Origin: Scyliorhinus canicula
Taxonomy: Eukaryota
Assembly (NCBI RefSeq): GCF_902713615.1
Contig: NC_052155.1
Span: forward strand, 77,448,269-77,512,268
Length of the DNA: 64,000 nucleotides
Reading direction: 5' to 3'
Shown here piece after piece: positions 20,701-64,000 of this stretch (position 1 is its first letter; each line of letters opens with the position of its first letter). A model generated the notes under the pieces. That model saw only the letters and a program-made list of their open reading frames with translations, searched no databases and was not told where the DNA came from. The position numbers and the translations under genes were made by a program.

Positions 20701-20826
20701 AAAATTACTGCGGATGCTGGAACCTGAAACAAAAACAGAAAATACTGGACAATCTCAGCAGGTCTGACAGCATCTATGGTGAGAGAAGGGAGCTAATGTT
20801 TTGAGTCTGGGTGACTCTTTGTCAAC
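20701..20826 (-). mobile_element. Penelope-like 3' terminal fragment with degenerate hammerhead motif
   Basis: Reverse complement aligns with 63825-63950. Confidence 0.75.
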
Positions 20827-33452: not shown

Positions 33453-36400
33453 TGTAATGACCTCCAATTAGCATTATTGGTTGGCCAATTGGAGTATGAG
33501 CTCCCTCAATGATAGCTCATTGAGGGGGCCCATATAAGCACCTGTGTAGGCTTTGTGATCCAGTCTTAAGTTGACTGGACTACTAGTAGCACTGTTGGAG
33601 CTGCTCTTGTATATAGTTATTGGCAATAAATATTGGTGTGGTGACGGGACTCCTGCCTCCTGTGGATTATTACAGTGGCGACGAGGTAAACAAAGAACTT
33701 TGCTGAGACCAGCTGCCGCACTCAGAGGGTAAGCCTTGCTATTTCAAAAATGCCGTTTTTTGGGAGGTTAGATGCATTCGACCTGACTATTGAGGACTGG
33801 TCCCAGTATGTGGAGAGAATGTGTTACTTCTTCCGGGCCAATGATATAACTACGGACGAAAGGAAATGGGTTATCCTGCTGTCGGCATGCGGACCCTCAG
33901 TTTTCGCCATTATACGTAGTCTAACTTATCCCGATGCGCCGGACACAAAACCCTTCCAAGAATTGACGGAATTGGTTAAAGAGCACTACGACCCAAAACC
34001 ACCCCTCATTTTGCATAGGTACAAATTCTACACAGTGAAGCGGGAAGACAGGAAGTCAGTCACAAATTTCTTGACCCGCCTAAGAAGGCTGGCGGAAAAA
34101 TGTGAGTTCGGCCCGACGCTAAATTAAATGCTTCGGGACCGGTTAGTTTATGGCCTAAACGATCTCACAGTACAGAAGTGCCTTTTGGTGGAAACGCAGC
34201 TCGACTGCAGGCAGGCGTTACAGCTCGCACTGTCCCTAGAAAAGGTAGCAAGTGGGGCGCAGGAACTACAGGGCACGCCAATGGAGGTAGATACCTGTGA
34301 GAGGGACTCCCATAACAGGTCCAGCTACCAGATAGCCACTCTCAGGAAAAGCCTGAGGAATAGAGGGCCAAAGGAAAACCCCAGAACTGCCCCCAAGTCT
34401 GCTAGGACTAACTGGAGACAGAGGGAAGTACTGGCTGAGGCTCCCCCAACAGAGAAGGACCATTTCTGGCACCAGACAGAGTGGGGTAACAGCGACAGAA
34501 ACCCTAGAAGGAGGTGGCAAAAGAGGAATAGCAGGTGGGGACACAGGGAAGTACACAACCTAGATGCCCCATCCTCCTCCGAAGGGGAACAATTATATAA
34601 TATTGTGATGATGAAAGCAGAACCTATTAAGGTTACCCCACGGGTGAACGGTCGGCCGACAATAATGGAAATAGACATGGGGGCGGCCATATCAGTAATG
34701 GGAGTGGAAGCATTTTTAAAAAATCAAAGATGGACTCCAGCCACTAACCCTAACAAAAATATCGACAAAACTTAAAACCTACACGGGGGAACCCCTGGAA
34801 GTTCTAGGCAGGACTCATGTACCCGTGGAATATGAGAAACAATTGCTCAGATTACCGTTGACGATAGCAGAGGGCTCCGGACCGAGCTTAATTGGATGGA
34901 ACTGGCTGAAAGACCTAAAATTAGATTGGATGAAATTTTTCAGAGTGGAAGCGGGCAGTTGAGTGGAGTACTCCAAAAATACCCGGAGGTCTTCCAAGAA
35001 GGTTTGGGGGAAATCATAGGTGCCAAAGCAACTTTGCACGTGGACCCAGAAGCCCTTCCGAAATTTTGTAAGGCCAGGGCGGTACCTTTCGCATTAAGGA
35101 AGACAGTAGAGGTCGAAATAGAAAGGTTACGGCACGACGGCATTATCAGACCAGTACAGTTCTCGGAATGGGCAGTGCCGGTGGTACCAATTTTGAAGCC
35201 AGACGGCTCGATACGTCTGTGGAGATTTCAAACAGACGGTAAACAAATACGCACTGCTGGACAAATACCCGATCCCAAAAATAGACGACCTATATGCCAA
35301 ATTGGCAGGTGGGCTTTTGTTCACGAAACTGGACATGAGCCACGCCTACCTGCAGTTAAAACTGGACAAGGGCTCCCAGAAGTTCGCTACGATCAACACC
35401 CTGAAGGGCCTTTTTCGTTATACTTGGATAACCTTTCGGAGGGTCATCAGCCTGCGCTATATTCCAGCGTACGATGGAAAATATTCTGCAGGGACTACCG
35501 CAGGTGCCGATTTATTTGGACGATGTCTTAATCACGGGTAGGACGAACAGGGAACACTTAAGGAACCTGGAGGAAGTGCTCAGGTGTTTCGCAAAGGCAG
35601 GCGTACGGCTTAAAAAAGAAAAATGTGTTTTTCTGGCCCCACAAGTGACGTACCTGGGATATAAAGTAGACGAGTCGGGCTTACGCCCATTGGAAGACAG
35701 AGGAAGGGCAATAAAAGAAGCCCCAGCTCCCACCACGGTCCAGGAGCTACGATCATTTCTAGGGTTGGTAACCTACTATAGCAAATTTATTGAAAATAGG
35801 GCGTCCATCCTAGAACCCCTCCACCAGCTACTAAAAAAGGGGCAAGAATGGAAATGGTCCGCCCGGCAAAACCAAGCATTTAGGGACATTAAGGAACAGC
35901 TGTCATCCGAAAATGTCCTAGAGCATTGTGACCCAAGGAAGGAGTTGGTGGTCACTTGTGACGCATCCCCTTACAGGGTAGGAGCCGTCTTAGCCCATAG
36001 AGGAAGGAATGGGGAAGAACGGCCAATGGCCTATGCTTCGAGGACCTTGGCGATGGCTGAGAGGAAGTACGCCCAAATTAGAAGGAAGGACTGGCGGTGA
36101 TATTTGCAGTAAAAAATGTCACCAGTATCTGTACGGGCGGAAATTCACCATAGTGACGGACCATAAGCCGTTATTAGGGTTATTAAAAGAAGACAAGTCA
36201 ATACCCCCGATCGCATCAGCTAGAATCCAACGCTGGGCGTTGCTACTGGCGGTGTATAGATACGTTCTGGAGCACAGACCGGGAACGCGAGTAGCAAATG
36301 CAGATGCTTTGAGCAGACTTCCCCTCCCGGACACCCCGCCGCTAATACTGAAAGTAGAGGAGACAGTAATGACTCTAAATTTTTTGGACACCTTACCAGT

Positions 36401-38059
36401 GGACGCACAATATATTCGGCTGTGGACGCAAAAATACCCAGTTTTAGCCAAGAAGAAGCATTTACTGCTAACATGGGAACTGGAAAGACCAGGTGAGCCC
36501 CAGATGCACCCATACTGGAGCAGAAGGGACCAAATAATCGTTGAAGATGGTATCCTATTATGGGGAGCCCCGGCAATAGTCCCAGCTCAGGGCCGTCAGG
36601 AAATCTTAACCGAGTTACATCACGGACACCCAGGGGTGTCTAAAATTAAGATGCTAGCTCGAAGCTACGTTTGGTGGCCAGGATTGGACACAGACATAGC
36701 AGCCTTGGTACGTCGGTGCCAGCAGGGGCAAAGAGTGCCACCAGCTGCACCATTGCACCCGTGGGAATGACCAGGCAGACCTTGGACCCGCCTGCATATT
36801 GACCACGCCAGCCCTTTGATGGGCTCAATGTTTTTGGTGATAGTGGACGCCCACTCCAAATGGTTGGGCGTCCACCGGGTAAACACGGCAAGCACAGCAT
36901 CGACAATCGAAAAGCTCAGGGCCTCGTTTGCAACACATAGACTTCCGGAGGTATTGGTGTCTGACAACGGAACAGCATTCACAAGTGGGGAATTTGGGAA
37001 ATTCCTAAAAGAAAACTGAGTCCGCCACATCAAAACGGCCCCTTACCATCCAGCGTTCCAACGGCCTGGCAGAGAGAGCGGTCCAGACACTAAAAGCGGG
37101 ACTCGAGAAGCAGCCGGCAGTGTCAATAGACACAAAGCTCTCCCGCTGGCTGTTTGATTACAGGATCACACCGCATTCCACAACGGGCATACCGCCAGCT
37201 GAACTCATAATAGGAAGGCGGCTGCGAACGAGGCTGAGTCTCCTTTTCCCAAATTTAATGGGGAAAGTGGAGAAACAACAGGAGGCCCAAAGCAGGGGGC
37301 ATGATAATAGTCGGCAGCAGAGACATTTCCAGATGGGGGCACCGGTTTGGGTCAAAAATTATGGGACTGGACCAACGTGGGTCAAAGGCACGGTAGAGTC
37401 CCAAACAGGGCCCATATCCTATGAGGTTTCGATAGGAGGTAAAGTGCTGAAGAAACACCTAGACCAAATAAGGGCAGCGGAACCACACCTGGAGGCAGGC
37501 GAAGCAGGACCGCCTCAAGCTGGGATAGCCCAGACGGAAAAGATACCCACACCCCAGCCCCAAGCAATTTCTCCAGACCCCGTCATCCAGTCGTCAGAGT
37601 CGGAGATGGACACGTTCGACGAGGCCGCCGCGACACCTCTCCCCGAGGAGGAGGAGGAAGAACAACTTCCAAGGAGGTCGTCAAGAAAAAGACGGGCACC
37701 TATAAGGTACACCCCGCCCACATCGGAGAACGACCCGGTGGACGATAGAGGTGACAGACGCGGACATGAAGAGCAGGAAGAAGCTCCGAGGGATGCCAGC
37801 TGGCAGGAATTCCTCAGACCTTGGGGGGAGGGGGTGGATTTAATGACCTCCAATTAGCATTATTGGTTGGCCAATTGGAGTATGAGCTCCCTCAATGATA
37901 GCTCATTGAGGGGGCCCATATAAGCACTGTGTAGGCTTTGTGATCCAGTCGTAAGTTGACTGGAATGCTAGCAGCACTGTTGGAGCTGCTCTTGTATATA
38001 GTTGTTGGCAATAAATATTGGTGTGGTGACAGGACTCCTGCCTCCTGTGGATTATTACA
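33453..38059 (+). mobile_element. Full-length Gypsy LTR retrotransposon (Mag/K02A2.6-like), inactivated
   Basis: LTRs at 33453-33674 and 37839-38059 (about 7 substitutions plus 1 indel by eye); 5-bp TSD cctcc; PBS tggcgacgagg; PPT ggggggagggg. Gag from 33750 with premature TAA at 34125; PR (DMGA), RT (YLDD), RNase H (CDASP), IN (SDNG); several frameshifts. Confidence 0.96.
33676..33686 (+). promoter_or_regulatory. Primer-binding site complementary to the tRNA-Ser(GCU) 3' end
   Basis: TGGCGACGAGG directly after the 5' LTR; matches ...CCUCGUCGCCA as recalled. Confidence 0.75.
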
Positions 38060-38124
38060 CCTCCTAAAGTTCGTCTTCACATCTAAATTTGTCTATATAT
38101 GTTTCTGGAACATACATCTTCATT

Positions 38125-38159
38125 CACCTGAGGATGGAGCAGTGCTCCGAAAGCTAGTG
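38125..38159 (+). ncRNA. Minimal type I hammerhead ribozyme motif within a Penelope-related repeat (~38080-38210)
   Basis: cac CTGAGGA t ggagc agt gctcc GAAA gc TA gtg. Confidence 0.7.
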
Positions 38160-38409
38160 TTTGAAACAGACCTGTTGAACTTTAACCTGGTGGTGTAAGA
38201 CTTCTTATTGTCTTCGCAAAGCGTGAGGCCCAGACTACACATCATGCCAGGTAGTCAGAATAGATCAGAGATATATCATCAGGGAGTGAACATCAGCAAT
38301 TTGATGACACTTCAGGCTGGGAATTACACCGTGAGCATTCTCACTCAGGAGCAGTAGCCCCCATGTAGTTGAAACATTTTTCTCAAAGTTTATTTCTCTG
38401 ATTCGATTT

Positions 38410-51418: not shown

Positions 51419-52882
51419 GCAAGAGTTACTTCTAATGATTATTATTTTCATGTTTTTGTTTACAATCCATGCATCATTTTATAGTCAGTGGGATGGGCAA
51501 GCACCATCTCTCATGCTTCTGGCAATTTCTCTCAAGATAAAATATATTAATCCTGGAAAATGGAACTATCCATTTTTGGCACCCCAAGGTAGGTACAACA
51601 TGGTTAAATGTAAATTACAGCTCCCTATACTCTCTTCCAGCATATGTAATAGCACCAACCTTGGAGGATTATTCCCTACAGCACAAGTGTGATACTTGTT
51701 AGATTACCAGGTCTATGATGACTTCAATCCAGGTTTGATCTCAGCATCAAACATCAATAACTTCTGAAAGCAGTTCATATCTATAAATCTCAAAGGCAGC
51801 GGGGTATCAGAGCAGCCAGAGCTACACATGGGAAAGGGCACTGCCAGGCAGGCATTGCCAAGGTGCCAAGCTGTCATTTTTCTCACGGAGGGAGGGAATC
51901 GGGCCCGGTGGTGCCCTGAGCGATTGAGGTGGGGGCCCCGAGGGCCCGTCTATAGGCAGGTGGGGAGGGGGTCCACGAGAGCGGTTCAACATTTTTAAAA
52001 TGGCCTCCCAAACTCTTCCTGCACTGAGGAGATCTAGCAAGCTCCTCAGTACAGGAAACGGAACTAAGTGCGGCCTCAACAGCCATTCCCCGCTGAAGCC
52101 CTGAATTGCAGATAGTGTGGTGTTGTCTACCAGTAACGGCCATGGAATGAGTAGTCACACATTTGGCAGCTCTCGCTCAAGGTGTTTTTTTTTAGCCTTT
52201 TCCCCATTTGCTGGGTGGATGTTTTGGTGGAAAAAGGTGTAGAGGTGACTGAAGAAAATTAAACTCCACTGGTGGATGGATTCACGGACCAGAAGTGGGT
52301 CGAGAAGAAGGGAGCTGTTGGAGCAAGAAATGATTTGTACGCCACAGGTGAATATGGCGGAGGGTAAAGGGTCAGTCCTGCCTACCCAGTGGTCAACTGA
52401 GAAGCTGGTGGACTTGTTAAATAAGAAGTTCAGCCAGCAGAGGAGGGAAGCTCAGGAAGGCCTAGCCAGGGTGATGGTACCACTAAAAGCGGGAATTGAC
52501 CGGGTGGAGCAGAGGCTAGAGACTCAGGGCTAGGCCATTCGGAAAGTGGAGGAGGCAGTGGGGTAGCAGGAGGAGCAGCTTACCTCATTGGCTGCCGAGA
52601 CTGGAATGTTGCAAGAGACGCAGAAACGGCCAGAAGGTGGAAGACTTAGAGAATCACTCCCAGAGACAAAACTTAAGAATCGTGGAGATGTCCAAAGCCA
52701 TTGAGGGAGCGGACACTGGTTCATATGTAGCCAAAATGCTGGAGACATTGATGGGTTAGGAGGCCATTGACTGGGCCCTGGAGGTCAACTGGGCGCATAG
52801 GGTGCTGATGAGGAAGCTGGAGACAAATGAGCCACTGAGCACAATGATGGTGCGGTTCCACAGATTCCTCAATAAAAAGAAA

Positions 52883-53082
52883 TGATGTGGAGATGCCGGC
52901 GTTGGACTGGAGTGAGCACAGTAAGAAGTCTTACAACACCAGGTTAAAGTCCAACAGGTTTGTTTTGAATCACTAGCTTTCGGAGCACTGCTCCTTCCTC
53001 AGGTGAGGAAGGAGCAGTGCTCCAAAAGCTCGTGTTTGAAACAAACCTGTTGGACTTTAACCTGGTGTTGTAAGACTTCTTA
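52883..53082. mobile_element. 200-bp fold-back hammerhead-bearing non-autonomous element
   Basis: 13-bp TSD caataaaaagaaa; ~80-bp inverted arms at 52921-53001 and 53004-53083. Confidence 0.85.
52970..53006 (-). ncRNA. Minimal type I hammerhead ribozyme motif with intact core
   Basis: Minus strand: tcac CTGAGGA a ggagc agt gctcc GAAA gc TA gtga. Confidence 0.75.
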
Positions 53083-54049
53083 CAATAAAAAGAAAGTATT
53101 GTGGTCGGCAAGGCAGACGAGGACGTGCACCTGGGAAGGCAAGGAGCTCCGGGTGTACCAGGGCCTCGGTGCGGACCTGTCGAAGAGGAGAGCCGGGGAG
53201 AAGGGGGTGAAGTTTGGAATGCTGTACCCAGTCCCCCTCTGGATGACTCACAGAATTTTGGGACACCAGAGGAGGCGATGGAGTTTTTAAAAGAGACAAT
53301 GGACTGGCACAAGAAGGTAGACACTTAATTGTGGAGGAGGAGTGAGGAAATGTTCGTTTTCGCTGCCTTTTTCTTTTTTATTGCCTTTTGTTTGAGAACT
53401 TCTCTCCTTTGAGATGTTTGGTTGTGTTCTGTGGTGGGATGTTTGGGAAGTGTGGAGGTGGAGTGCTTCCCCCCTACATTATCGCAGGCGTCCATATCTC
53501 TAATATTAAAGAAGGATAAAGATCCGAAGCAGTGTAGGTCCTATCGGCCGATATCGTTGCTAAATGTGGTCGGTGAGTTGTTGGCAAAGGTCCTGCACTG
53601 GCGAATTGAGGACAGTGTGCCGGAGGTGATGGGGAAGACAAGACGGGGCTCGTAAAGGGGAAGCAACTGTCAGCGAAGTTGAGATTACTAAATGTGATGG
53701 TGATGCTCCCAGAGGGACTGGACTTGGAGGTGGCAGATACAATGGATGCAGAGAAGGCTTTTGATCGGGTAGAATGGGAATAGTTGTGGAATGTGTTAGG
53801 ATGTTTTGGGTTCGGGCAGGGGTTTGTAGATTGTTGTATAGGGCACCGATTGTATAAGGTGCAGATAGCGAGCGAATTGGGTGAGGTTGGGGACTTCGGG
53901 TTACACCGTGGGACAAGGTAGGGGTACCCACTTTCCCCATTGCTTTTTGCCTTGGCAATACAGCCACTGGCAATGGTGCTTAAAGCATCAAGGAGTTGGA
54001 GAGGGATTGTGCTGGGGCAGGGAGGTGTTGAGCACAGGGTATCTCTATA

Positions 54050-60248: not shown

Positions 60249-60624
60249 CTTTGTGTTTCAGGGATGCATCACACTTGAAAACATGTCATTAATTTAAAAA
60301 TCCACCCAAATACCCCTTCTTAAAACATACAGGTTGGATTATATGCTGAGGGTGGGATCCCTGCTCACCACTGTAAATGTCAGGGATGAACCTGCCACTG
60401 GTTGGCCAGCTCATCTCCCCCTTAGATTTTCTGCCATTGGGCCTTTAATTATTATGAAGGCAGCCCTCTGCCCCTCTTCAGTGGGCAGTCCCTGTACCGA
60501 ATATTCTGTAAGTATTGTATGTAACTGTCACTTGAAATCTTGAAAATAATTTTTTAAGGTGTCTAAAAGTTAAATAGTTAACTTTGATCAGAGAAAGAGC
60601 TGAAGTAGATCAACAAATTTAAAA

Positions 60625-63600
60625 CGAAAGGGAAAATGCTGGAAAATCTCAGCAAGTCTGGCAGCACCTGTAGGGAGAGAAAAGAGCTAACGTTTCAAGT
60701 CAAAACTAACAGACAAAAAGAGTGGGAAATATTTATACTGTGGAGTGAGAATGAAAGATGAGTCATAGCCACAGAAACCCAGGGAAACCGGGTGCTAATG
60801 GCCACAGATACCAAGGGGAAAGAGTGCTAATGGCAGTCCCCAGAGAGGACAAAAGATGTGAAAGGTCAAACAGCAGGGAAACTAACATCAGAGGATGAAC
60901 TGTCGGTGTGGGGGGAGGGGAACGGGAAGCAAAGAGGTGAAAGGTGCAGGAAAGAAAGAAATGGTAAAAGACAGTTAAAATGAAATGAAAACAAATGGGT
61001 CGAGGTGGGACTGATCATCTGAAGTTGTTGAATTCGATGTTCAGGCCGGAAGGCTGTAGCGTGCCTAACCGGAAGATGTGGTGTTGTTCCTCCAGTGTGC
61101 GTTGCGCTTCACTGGAACATTGCAGCAGACCAAGAACAGACATATGGGCATGGGAGCAGGGTCTTTTGTTAAAAAGGCAAGCAACAGGAAGGTCAGGATC
61201 CTGAATGCGCACCAACCGAAGATGTCCAGCAAAGCGATCACCCAGTCTACATTTGATCTCTCCGATATGGAGGAGACCACATTGGGAGCAACGAATGCAA
61301 TAGATCAAATTGAAAGAGGTGCAAGTGAAACGCTGCGTAACCTGGAATGAGTGTTTTGGGCCTGGGATGAGGGGCCGAGGGTAGTGGCGCGGGAGATGGA
61401 CCGCACACTGTTGAGGGCCCTGTTCACAACTGTAGGTGGGAAATCACGATCGAGAAGAAGGAACACATTTTCGAAGCACCATTTTGGAAAGTGGCATCGT
61501 CGGAACACATGCGACAGAGGCGAAGGAGTTGAGAGAAAGGGATGGAGTCCTTACAGGGTGTAGGGTGTGAAGAGCTGTAGTCCAGATAGCTGTGGGAGTC
61601 AGTGGGCTTGTAGTGGATATTAGTGGATAGTCTATTGCCGGAAATGGAGACAGAAAGATCAGGGAAGGGAAGGGAAGTGTCTGAGATTGTCCAGGTGAAA
61701 GTGATGGAGCGGTGGAAACTGGAAGTAAAGTTGATGAATTTTTACAGGTCCGGGCGAGAGCATGATGCGACACTAAAATAGTCATCAATGTATCAGTAAA
61801 GGACTTGTGGCAGGGGGCCCAGATAGGCCTGGAATAAGGATTGTTCCACATACCCCATAAAAAGGGGTATGTGGACAAAGGGGGTGCTGTTGTCATCTGG
61901 CGCACTGACCTCTACCTCAGAGGCTGTGCGCCAACTCTCCGATACTTCCTCTTACCTCCCCCTGGACCATGACCAGACCACTGAACATCAAACCATTAAC
62001 TCCAACACCGTTAGTGACCTCATTTCCTCCGGATGCCTTCCCCCTACGGCTTCCAACCTCATAGTCCCCCAACCCCGGACAGCCCGCTTTTACCTACTTC
62101 CAAAATCCACAAAAAGGACTGTTCCAGCAGGCCCATTGTGTCAGCATGCTCCTGCCCCACCGAACTTATTTCCTCTTATCTTGACTCCATCCTCACTCCT
62201 CTTGTCCATTCCCTCCCCACCTACAACCAGGATTCCTCTGATGCCCTGCGTCATATTGACAGCTTCCAGTTCGTGGGCCCTAACCGCATTCTATTCACCA
62301 TGGATGTGCAATCTCTCTACACCTCCATCCCACACCAGGATGGCCTGAGAGCTCTTCGCTTCTTTCTCGAAAAGAGGCCCAGACAATGCCCATCCACCAC
62401 CACTCTCCTCCGCCTGGCGGAACTCGTTCTATCTCTGAACAACTTCTCCTTTAACTCATCTCACGTTCTCCAAATCAAAGGTGTAGCAATGGGTACCCGC
62501 ATGAGTCCTAGCTACGCTTGCCTTTTTATGGGGTATGTTCCAGTTTCCACCTCTCCATCACTTTCACCTGGTCCATCTCAGACACTTCCCTTCCTTTCCT
62601 TGATCTTTCTGTCTCCATTTCCGGCAACAGACTATCCACTAATATCCACTACAAGCCCACTGACTCCCACAGCTATCTGGACTACAGCTCTTCACACCCT
62701 ACACCCTGTAAGGACTCCATCCCTTTCTCTCAACTCCTTCGCCTCCGTCGCATTTGTTCCGACGATGCCACTTTCCAAAATGGTGCTTAGAAAATGTGTT
62801 CCCTCTTCCTCGACCGTGATTTCCCACCTACAGTTGTGGACAGGGCCCTCAACAGTGTGCGGTCCATCTCCTGCACCACTACCCTCGGCCCCTCCACTCC
62901 CTCCCAGAACAAGGATAGAGTCTCCCTCGTTCTCACATTTCATCCCACCAGCCTCCGTATGCAAAGCATAATCCTCCGCCATTTTCGCCAACTCCAGCGT
63001 GATGCCACCACCAAACACATCTTCCCTTCACTCCCTCTGTCAGCATTCCGCAGAGACCGTTCCCTCCGAAACAATCTAGTCCACTCCTCCACCATACCCA
63101 GTACCTCTCCCATCACCCATGGCACCTTCCCATACAATCACAAGAGGTGTAACACCTGCCCCGTTACCTCTTCCATGCTTAACATTCCAGGCCCAAAACA
63201 CTCATTCCAGGTTAAGCAGCGTTTCACTTGCACCTCTTTCAATCTGGTCTATTGCATTCGCTGCTCCCAATGTGGTCTCCTCTATATCGGAGAGACCAAA
63301 CGCAGACTGGGTGATCGCTTTGCTGAGCATCTTCGGTCTGTGCGCATTCAGGATCCTGACCTTCCTGTTGCTTGCCATTTTAACAAAAAACCCTGCTCCC
63401 ATGCCCACATGTCTGTTCTTGGCCTGCTGCAATGTTCCAGTGAAGCTCAACGCAAACTGGAGGAACAACACCTCATCTTCCGATTAGGCACACTACAGCC
63501 TTCCGGCCTGAACATCGAATTCAACAATTTCAGATGATCAGCCCCACCTCGACCCATTTGTTTTCATTTCATTTTAACTGTCTTTTACCATTTCTTTCTT

Positions 63601-63954
63601 TCCTGCACCTTTCTCCTCTTTGCTTCCCCCTTCCTCTCCCCCCACACCGACAGTTCATCCTCTGATGTTAGTTTCCCTGCTGTTTGACCTTTCACATTTT
63701 TTGTCCTCTTTCCCCTTGGTACCTGTGGCCATTAGCACCCGGCTTCCCTGGGTTTCTGTGGCTATGACTAATCTTTCATTCTCACTCCACAGTATAAATA
63801 TTTCCCACTCTCTCTGTCTGTCAACTTTGACAAAGAGTCATCGGACTTGAAACGTTAGCTCTTTTCTCTCCCTACAGATGCTGCCAGACTTGCTGAGATT
63901 TTCCAGCATTTTCCCTTTCGTTTCAGATTCCAGCATCCGCAGTAATTTACTTTT
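60625..63954 (+). mobile_element. Penelope-like retroelement (RT + GIY-YIG), 5'-truncated with inverted 5' arm
   Basis: 13-bp TSD aacaaatttaaaa (60612-60624 and 63955-63967). DKGGAVV, MDVQSLYTSIP, GVAMG; GIY-YIG VYCIRCSQCGLLYIGETKRRLGDRFAEH...GLN. 60625-61863 is an inverted copy of the 3' part. Confidence 0.93.
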
Positions 63955-64000
63955 AACAAATTTAAAATGTAAGTTGAGTACTTCCCAGTTACTGAAATGA

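Follow-up and report, generated by a model that had tools for sequence, protein, structure and literature searches.

The short fold-back element that interrupts a decayed reading frame near 53 kb of the window (the whole 64,000-nucleotide stretch of Scyliorhinus canicula contig NC_052155.1 that was analysed) is very likely a by-product of an autonomous, ORF-bearing Penelope-like element (PLE), from whose leader both of its arms are copied. The model that best accounts for its form, and that we consider probable, is twin priming at two internal reverse transcriptase (RT) starts, with run-off of both cDNAs at the start of the mRNA and end-joining of the products. Taken alone, it is an unremarkable dead insertion; what makes it informative is the very large family to which it belongs.

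Positions within the family are numbered from the first T of the stem I sequence TCAC (+1, window position 53006, minus strand), the preceding base being 0; on this scale the tail of the focal element ends at +124 (window position 52883). The features are listed in Table 1. The two copies of the target-site duplication (TSD), CAATAAAAAGAAA, are 100% identical (13/13), and the inverted arms match over 45 nt at 100% and over 38 nt at 89%, with a spacing of 2 nt, as the original prediction had described. That prediction also held that the hairpin could form long double-stranded RNA, which is supported by a calculated fold of -142.3 kcal/mol (z -19), reached by none of 200 shuffled sequences. The 38-nt tail is present on the left arm only. 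The tailed arm is 97.6% identical to the older copies L007 and L010, and the two arms differ from each other at the linked sites 33 and 37, where the tail-less arm has C33 and a deleted A37 and the tailed arm has A33 and A37.

Table 1. Features of the focal insertion and of related elements in the window (window coordinates; signed positions follow the family numbering).
Feature	Position	Strand	Remarks
Left TSD, 13 bp	52870..52882	+	final base also fits the element
Right TSD, 13 bp	53083..53095	+	initial base compatible with the element as well
Tailed arm, pLTR leader +1..+124	52883..53006	-	last base is the A of the ORF start codon (ATG)
38-nt PLE tail	52883..52920	-	between two 3'-end sites, ~+88 and ~+124 (available text of PMC11167929)
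Tail-less arm, +6..+86	53004..53083	+	lacks core C3, has G26A
TGA microhomology, 3 nt, at the arm-arm joint	53004..53006		exact same junction found 286 times
Minimal type I hammerhead	52970..53006	-	CTGAGGA 53002-52996, stem II 52994-52982, GAAA 52981-52978
Decayed host ORF, presumably L1 ORF1-like	52330..53330	+	limits approximate
Single tail-less copy of the focal family	38086..38207	+	~-43 (TATA box included) to +85
Penelope of a different family	60612..63967		13-bp TSD, inverted arms, one-sided tail of ~35 nt, internal rearrangement

Once the insert is removed, the host frame is open through the empty site. From sequence motifs we tentatively take this frame to be L1 ORF1-like and the flanking gene, which has ABHD-like exons on the plus strand on both sides of the site, to be ABHD3; a Pfam search gave zero matches for either label, and Atlas gave leads only. 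As regards function, the insert is most likely inert: its TATA box is lost, and whichever strand is transcribed, the hammerhead would be locked into the 80-bp duplex, because in the predicted fold an antisense arm precedes it on each strand.

The minus-strand unit consists of a stem I (TCAC/GTGA), the core CTGAGGA, an extra A, a 5-bp stem II, GAAA, a palindromic AGCT and a UA site, and would be cut after the UA at 52974 on the minus strand. A scan for CTGANGA plus stem II and GAAA matched at 53002 (minus strand) and at 38128, and gave no match in the plus arm of the focal hairpin. Two earlier claims are thereby borne out, namely that the hammerhead is intact on the minus strand only, and that there is a further unit at 38080-38210. 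The Rfam scan returned no hammerhead match at E ≤ 1. Core C3 is missing from the plus arm because the arms overlap by TGA, so that this arm begins at +6. The CAAAA of the plus arm reflects a G-to-A substitution within a CpG, and this variant (G26A) is found in 16 of 154 arms. The asymmetry between an intact and a broken core therefore follows from junction position and CpG decay, and among 92 fold-backs the core survives in both arms in 12, in one arm in 43 and in neither in 37. The unit at 38.1 kb has a possible degenerate 11-bp TSD (38071-38081 and 38208-38218). A 220-bp direct duplication of 96.8% identity (window positions 33455-33674 and 37841-38059) ends just before it.

The parent family is represented by a copy, L212, which ends in the focal leader sequence and has an open ORF of 905 aa, with an RVT_1 domain (E = 7e-10) and, at its C-terminal end, a GIY-YIG domain (E = 9e-4, under the Pfam cut-off). 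The ORF is fully open in one of the five long copies fetched. Its ATG lies directly downstream of the tail, so that hammerhead and tail precede the ORF, and 13 of the 29 closest other copies extend at least 250 bp upstream into the GIY-YIG/RT frame. The linker before GIY-YIG in L212 reads CQGNLCKTC, that is CX4CxxC, which falls within the CX2-5CxxC pattern that defines the Neptune/Nematis type (PMC8557442, in the text available). On this motif we class the parent as a Neptune/Nematis-type Penelope, and an assignment to the Poseidon clade was dropped on the same ground. A hammerhead within a tandem pLTR organisation is seen in L210, L212 and L168. The last of these (L168:945-8772) is a tandem trimer with a 2,707-bp unit and a 277-bp deletion near the ORF start, while the open-ORF copy (L212:3378-6414) has its 5' end at +36, two bases beyond the predicted hammerhead cut, and a tail-less 3' end.

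The family is abundant. A 16-mer of the leader has 68,079 exact matches genome-wide, compared with one for a control; an exact 11-mer has over 38,000, and a search with an exact 10+10 pattern gave 3,141 short fold-backs. Young copies of the parent family are more than 99.7% alike. The proposed Penelope origin, with insertion by an RT/GIY-YIG protein and formation of a TSD, is thus supported by the L212 ORF, and also by the TSD counts given below. A MITE or fold-back DNA transposon was rejected, given that one end has a 38-nt extension, that there are no symmetric TIRs, and that the parent is a retroelement. The Penelope at 60.6 kb does share the 13-bp TSD and the inverted geometry, as first pointed out, but it is not the parent: its protein is just 32-41% identical to that of L212, and it is unnecessary as a mobiliser of the focal element. 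It has a decayed hammerhead-like motif near 63825-63860, and a fragment is also present at 20702-20825.

The shapes of family copies were examined in a position-ordered sample, consisting of the DNA around the first 100 matches to the 16-mer (66 segments and 118 arms, in 5 Mb of one contig), and in a set of 86-95 fold-backs that was partly selected by pattern. The sample contains 75 insertion events, of which 43 are head-to-head pairs and 32 singles (pairing was automatic, and a few long-range pairs are doubtful). The head-to-head pair is thus the commonest insertion form in the sample, and single tail-less copies are common too. Of 95 fold-backs (2-3 rows of which are duplicates), 88 have a single tail; of 92 scored for a TSD, 54 have one of 11-17 nt, compared with none of 92 controls having one of more than 8 nt. 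The 3' ends of the 118 arms are bimodal: 58 lie at +73..+95, the other 60 lie at +121..+135, and there are none between. These two clusters agree with the pair of RT starts described in PMC11167929. The 5' ends are more dispersed: 24 lie at -3..0, 14 at -50..-4, 43 at +1..+26 and 30 beyond -50. When 34 further arms were added and 14 rows of identical context removed, the pooled set of 138 arms gave a step (26 at the peak and 16 upstream, p = 9e-19). The possibility that all copies are random 5' truncations of an autonomous Penelope is therefore half right: they are truncations of such an element, but they are not random, since they pile up at the predicted RNA start.

In long copies, TATATA is found 30 nt ahead of a TCATT/CCATT initiator whose A is at -1, and it is from this arrangement that we infer the 5'-end pile-up to mark an RNA start at the initiator rather than a ribozyme cut. 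Only four of the 138 arms begin at +32..+36, around the predicted cut, and there is no peak there; the hammerhead cut was accordingly rejected as the origin of the 5' ends, although L212 begins at +36. A non-template letter precedes A(-1) in 4,727 matches genome-wide and T(0) in 3,740, the latter number being inflated by minisatellites, and a purine precedes C(-2) in 1,267. Among the first 100 of these matches, A(-1) is preceded by G in 62. One base further in, G was counted by hand in 12 of 100 (12 of 75 once one minisatellite was collapsed), and one base out, at -2, the hand count was G:A = 39:61. The excess of G before A(-1) is suggestive of cap copying; some of the extra G can be explained by a single-base microhomology with TC/GA, either in the partner arm or in the template. 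When poly(A) single-cell reads (about 1% of the one raw run among four) were mapped to a parent copy, neither their starts nor their ends piled up; they fall on both strands, and 78% run into unlike sequence, as is expected of dispersed copies in host transcripts. Two further observations weigh against the model: the Penelope of D. virilis has an internal promoter that is not of the TATA type (PMC2377424), and the 30 arms of 118 that extend beyond -50 derive from the 3' pLTR or from tandem RNA.

A different account of the pile-up keeps the joining of two cDNAs and attributes their common end to stalling or template jumping of the RT at stem I/II, or to a processed RNA end. The peak does lie within 0-3 nt of the 5' edge of stem I, and secondary peaks at +10, +13, +21 and +26 fall within stem II. 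An RT, however, would meet a stem from its 3' side and should stall there, and the peak sits on an initiator, at the canonical distance from a TATA box and with an excess of G; moreover, few arms end near the predicted cut. We regard this account as quite improbable.

The original prediction placed the focal element in a discrete, non-autonomous, retrozyme-like family of about 200 bp, moved in trans; such a family would have a master RNA of its own. Fold-back sizes do cluster around 200 bp, and the focal junction occurs in 286 exact copies. The sequence is nevertheless the leader of an ORF-bearing parent, a head-to-tail repeat is absent from the focal locus, and 86 fold-backs have 69 different sets of junction coordinates. 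The copies with the focal junction are themselves heterogeneous: of 31 examined (30 and the focal one), 18 bear the tail on the short arm, 10 on the long arm and one on both, with two uncalled, and they span several haplotypes. We therefore conclude that this junction arises repeatedly and not from one master, because a master RNA would fix tail side and haplotype alike. A discrete family is thus highly improbable and largely refuted. Palindromes may occasionally move as such: two 2.9-kb fold-backs lying 1.1 Mb apart (L132:495-3423 and L090:524-3453) are 99.6% identical; they agree in their complex junction and in the side of the tail but have different flanks, and exist in exactly two copies genome-wide. 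Either the palindrome moved as a unit, or there was conversion between two insertions.

Some other arrangements of the family were seen. One locus (L204:3266-4166) is a head-to-tail tandem with a 352-bp period, made of the pLTR and 127 nt of the ORF; it is a retrozyme-like array of the focal family, with its hammerheads on one strand. In two others (L089:713-3873 and L019:1181-1475), fold-back junctions have grown into minisatellites of hammerhead fragments, of 39 bp and 27 bp respectively.

Self-priming, in which a single strand folds back on itself at a short palindrome and serves as its own template, has been proposed for PLEs on an antisense template (PMC3846280, available text), and is consistent with several features: junctions are palindromic or symmetric in L138, L142 and L237, the haplotype is the same in both arms of most pairs, and long arms are often similar in length. 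If a first-strand cDNA snapped back, however, the tailed arm would have to exceed the other in length, and among the 86 fold-backs the longer arm is tailed in 36 and tail-less in 42, the arms being equal in 8. The junctions comprise 30 overlaps (one of them mis-called), 5 blunt joints and 51 with filler of up to 65 nt, and the abundance of filler is again not expected from self-priming; nor is the frequency of single tail-less copies. One filler junction, GGTGAAATGGAAGG, recurs in 4 of the 50 fold-backs listed (L174, L175, L180 and L181), with the tail on either arm, which suggests that the filler is templated.

Self-priming further predicts identical arms. Haplotypes of arms, typed by alignment, differ within 8-16% of pairs, the focal one included, in that the two arms have different subfamily alleles. 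The +37 indel is discordant in 13 of 103 pairs, against a background of 5 in 4,546 column pairs (0.11%), and three transversions are discordant well above their background of 2.0% (17 of 104 pairs for C50A, 8 of 99 for A33C and 14 of 87 for A18T). Discordances at these diagnostic sites co-occur (p = 0.0004). If templates were freely drawn, 47 (+37), 32 (C50A), 42 (A33C) and 34 (A18T) discordant pairs would be expected; the observed numbers are lower, and most pairs therefore share a template or source locus. Gene conversion after insertion could be an alternative source of the discordance. Taken with the filler and the arm lengths, these differences make self-priming unlikely as the origin of the fold-backs. 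The evidence for two templates is the point tested here.

In the twin-priming model that we prefer, the mRNA would start at the initiator A(-1), 30 nt behind the TATA box of the upstream pLTR, and hammerhead and tail would form a leader of about 125 nt ahead of the ATG. The GIY-YIG domain would nick both strands, 11-17 nt apart, and the 3' ends would prime at different places, one near +124 and the other near +88, corresponding to the pair of internal RT starts known for PLEs. With these sites used in the leader and not in the 3' pLTR, the cDNAs would run off the 5' end of the RNA after 90-125 nt; their ends would then be trimmed and joined via microhomology (TGA at the focal site) or filler. 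In a minority of events, probably including the focal one, the two cDNAs would come from different RNA molecules. For the Poseidon element PAc, the available text of PMC11167929 describes cutting and extension of both strands, two internal starts that bound the tail, and a predicted dimer. Held more tentatively, as a reading that could nearly as easily be right as wrong, is a wider proposal: that two-ended priming by a dimer is obligate, with the subunits at different fixed sites and each possibly carrying its own mRNA. The hairpins, in their tens of thousands, would then be run-offs of a capped leader that map the RNA start, record two-RNA events and settle the origin of the inversions against self-priming.

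The family copies bear on a question that the field calls open, namely the origin of Penelope head-to-head inversions and tails. Three signatures separate two-ended priming from self-priming (one tail per pair, either arm longer, and differing haplotypes of the arms), and they also yield a direct biochemical test. For the host, the thousands of near-perfect hairpins of 80 bp that the family has left behind could amount to a load of double-stranded RNA in introns.

A mechanistic parallel is twin priming of L1, in which both target ends prime cDNA, giving an inverted segment, a TSD and a microhomology junction. The segments of L1 copy different parts of one RNA, whereas here a single leader sequence is the source of both, each copied from a fixed site and sometimes on different templates. 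Our literature search, covering few subscription journals, found no published model that explains PLE inversions by run-off or twin priming, which is weak evidence of absence.

The head-to-head architecture itself is already published, and comparisons with it and with the systems below refer to those parts of the cited texts that were available. The signature of EN+ PLEs is an inverted 5'-truncated copy with a one-sided tail of 30-40 bp and a TSD (PMC8557442, PMC3846280). The copies described here share head-to-head arms, the single tail, the TSD, and a pLTR with hammerhead, TATA box and initiator; they differ in that both focal arms are shorter than 125 nt, and in that this minimal form is the commonest product. 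Published models invoke EN resolution or self-priming (PMC8557442, PMC3846280), whereas the present copies favour two cDNAs. As in PAc of Anolis, two internal RT starts would bound a tail at the pLTR-ORF junction, both strands would be cut and extended, and targets are AT-rich; in vitro, PAc does not require hammerhead cleavage (PMC11167929). PAc belongs to a different clade and its ORF begins inside the hammerhead, whereas here it begins at the end of the tail; inversions or run-off products are not treated in the accessible part of that paper.

The hammerhead resembles the minimal hammerheads of metazoan PLEs in its bulged base before stem II and its palindromic remnant of stem III (PMC4209133). 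That study reports dual motifs on opposite strands about 100-700 bp apart, single motifs from truncated PLEs, and no cleavage by monomeric minimal hammerheads; the text available gives no mechanism for the opposite-strand pairs. Its quoted copy numbers are 2,000-9,000, as compared with more than 38,000 here by the exact 11-mer. Finally, the focal element shares with animal non-LTR retrozymes a type I hammerhead, a non-coding character and an origin from a PLE pLTR (bioRxiv 10.64898/2026.07.22.740005). Those elements are defined by a head-to-tail tandem arrangement and by two or more complete hammerheads, whereas the focal element is head-to-head and has one.
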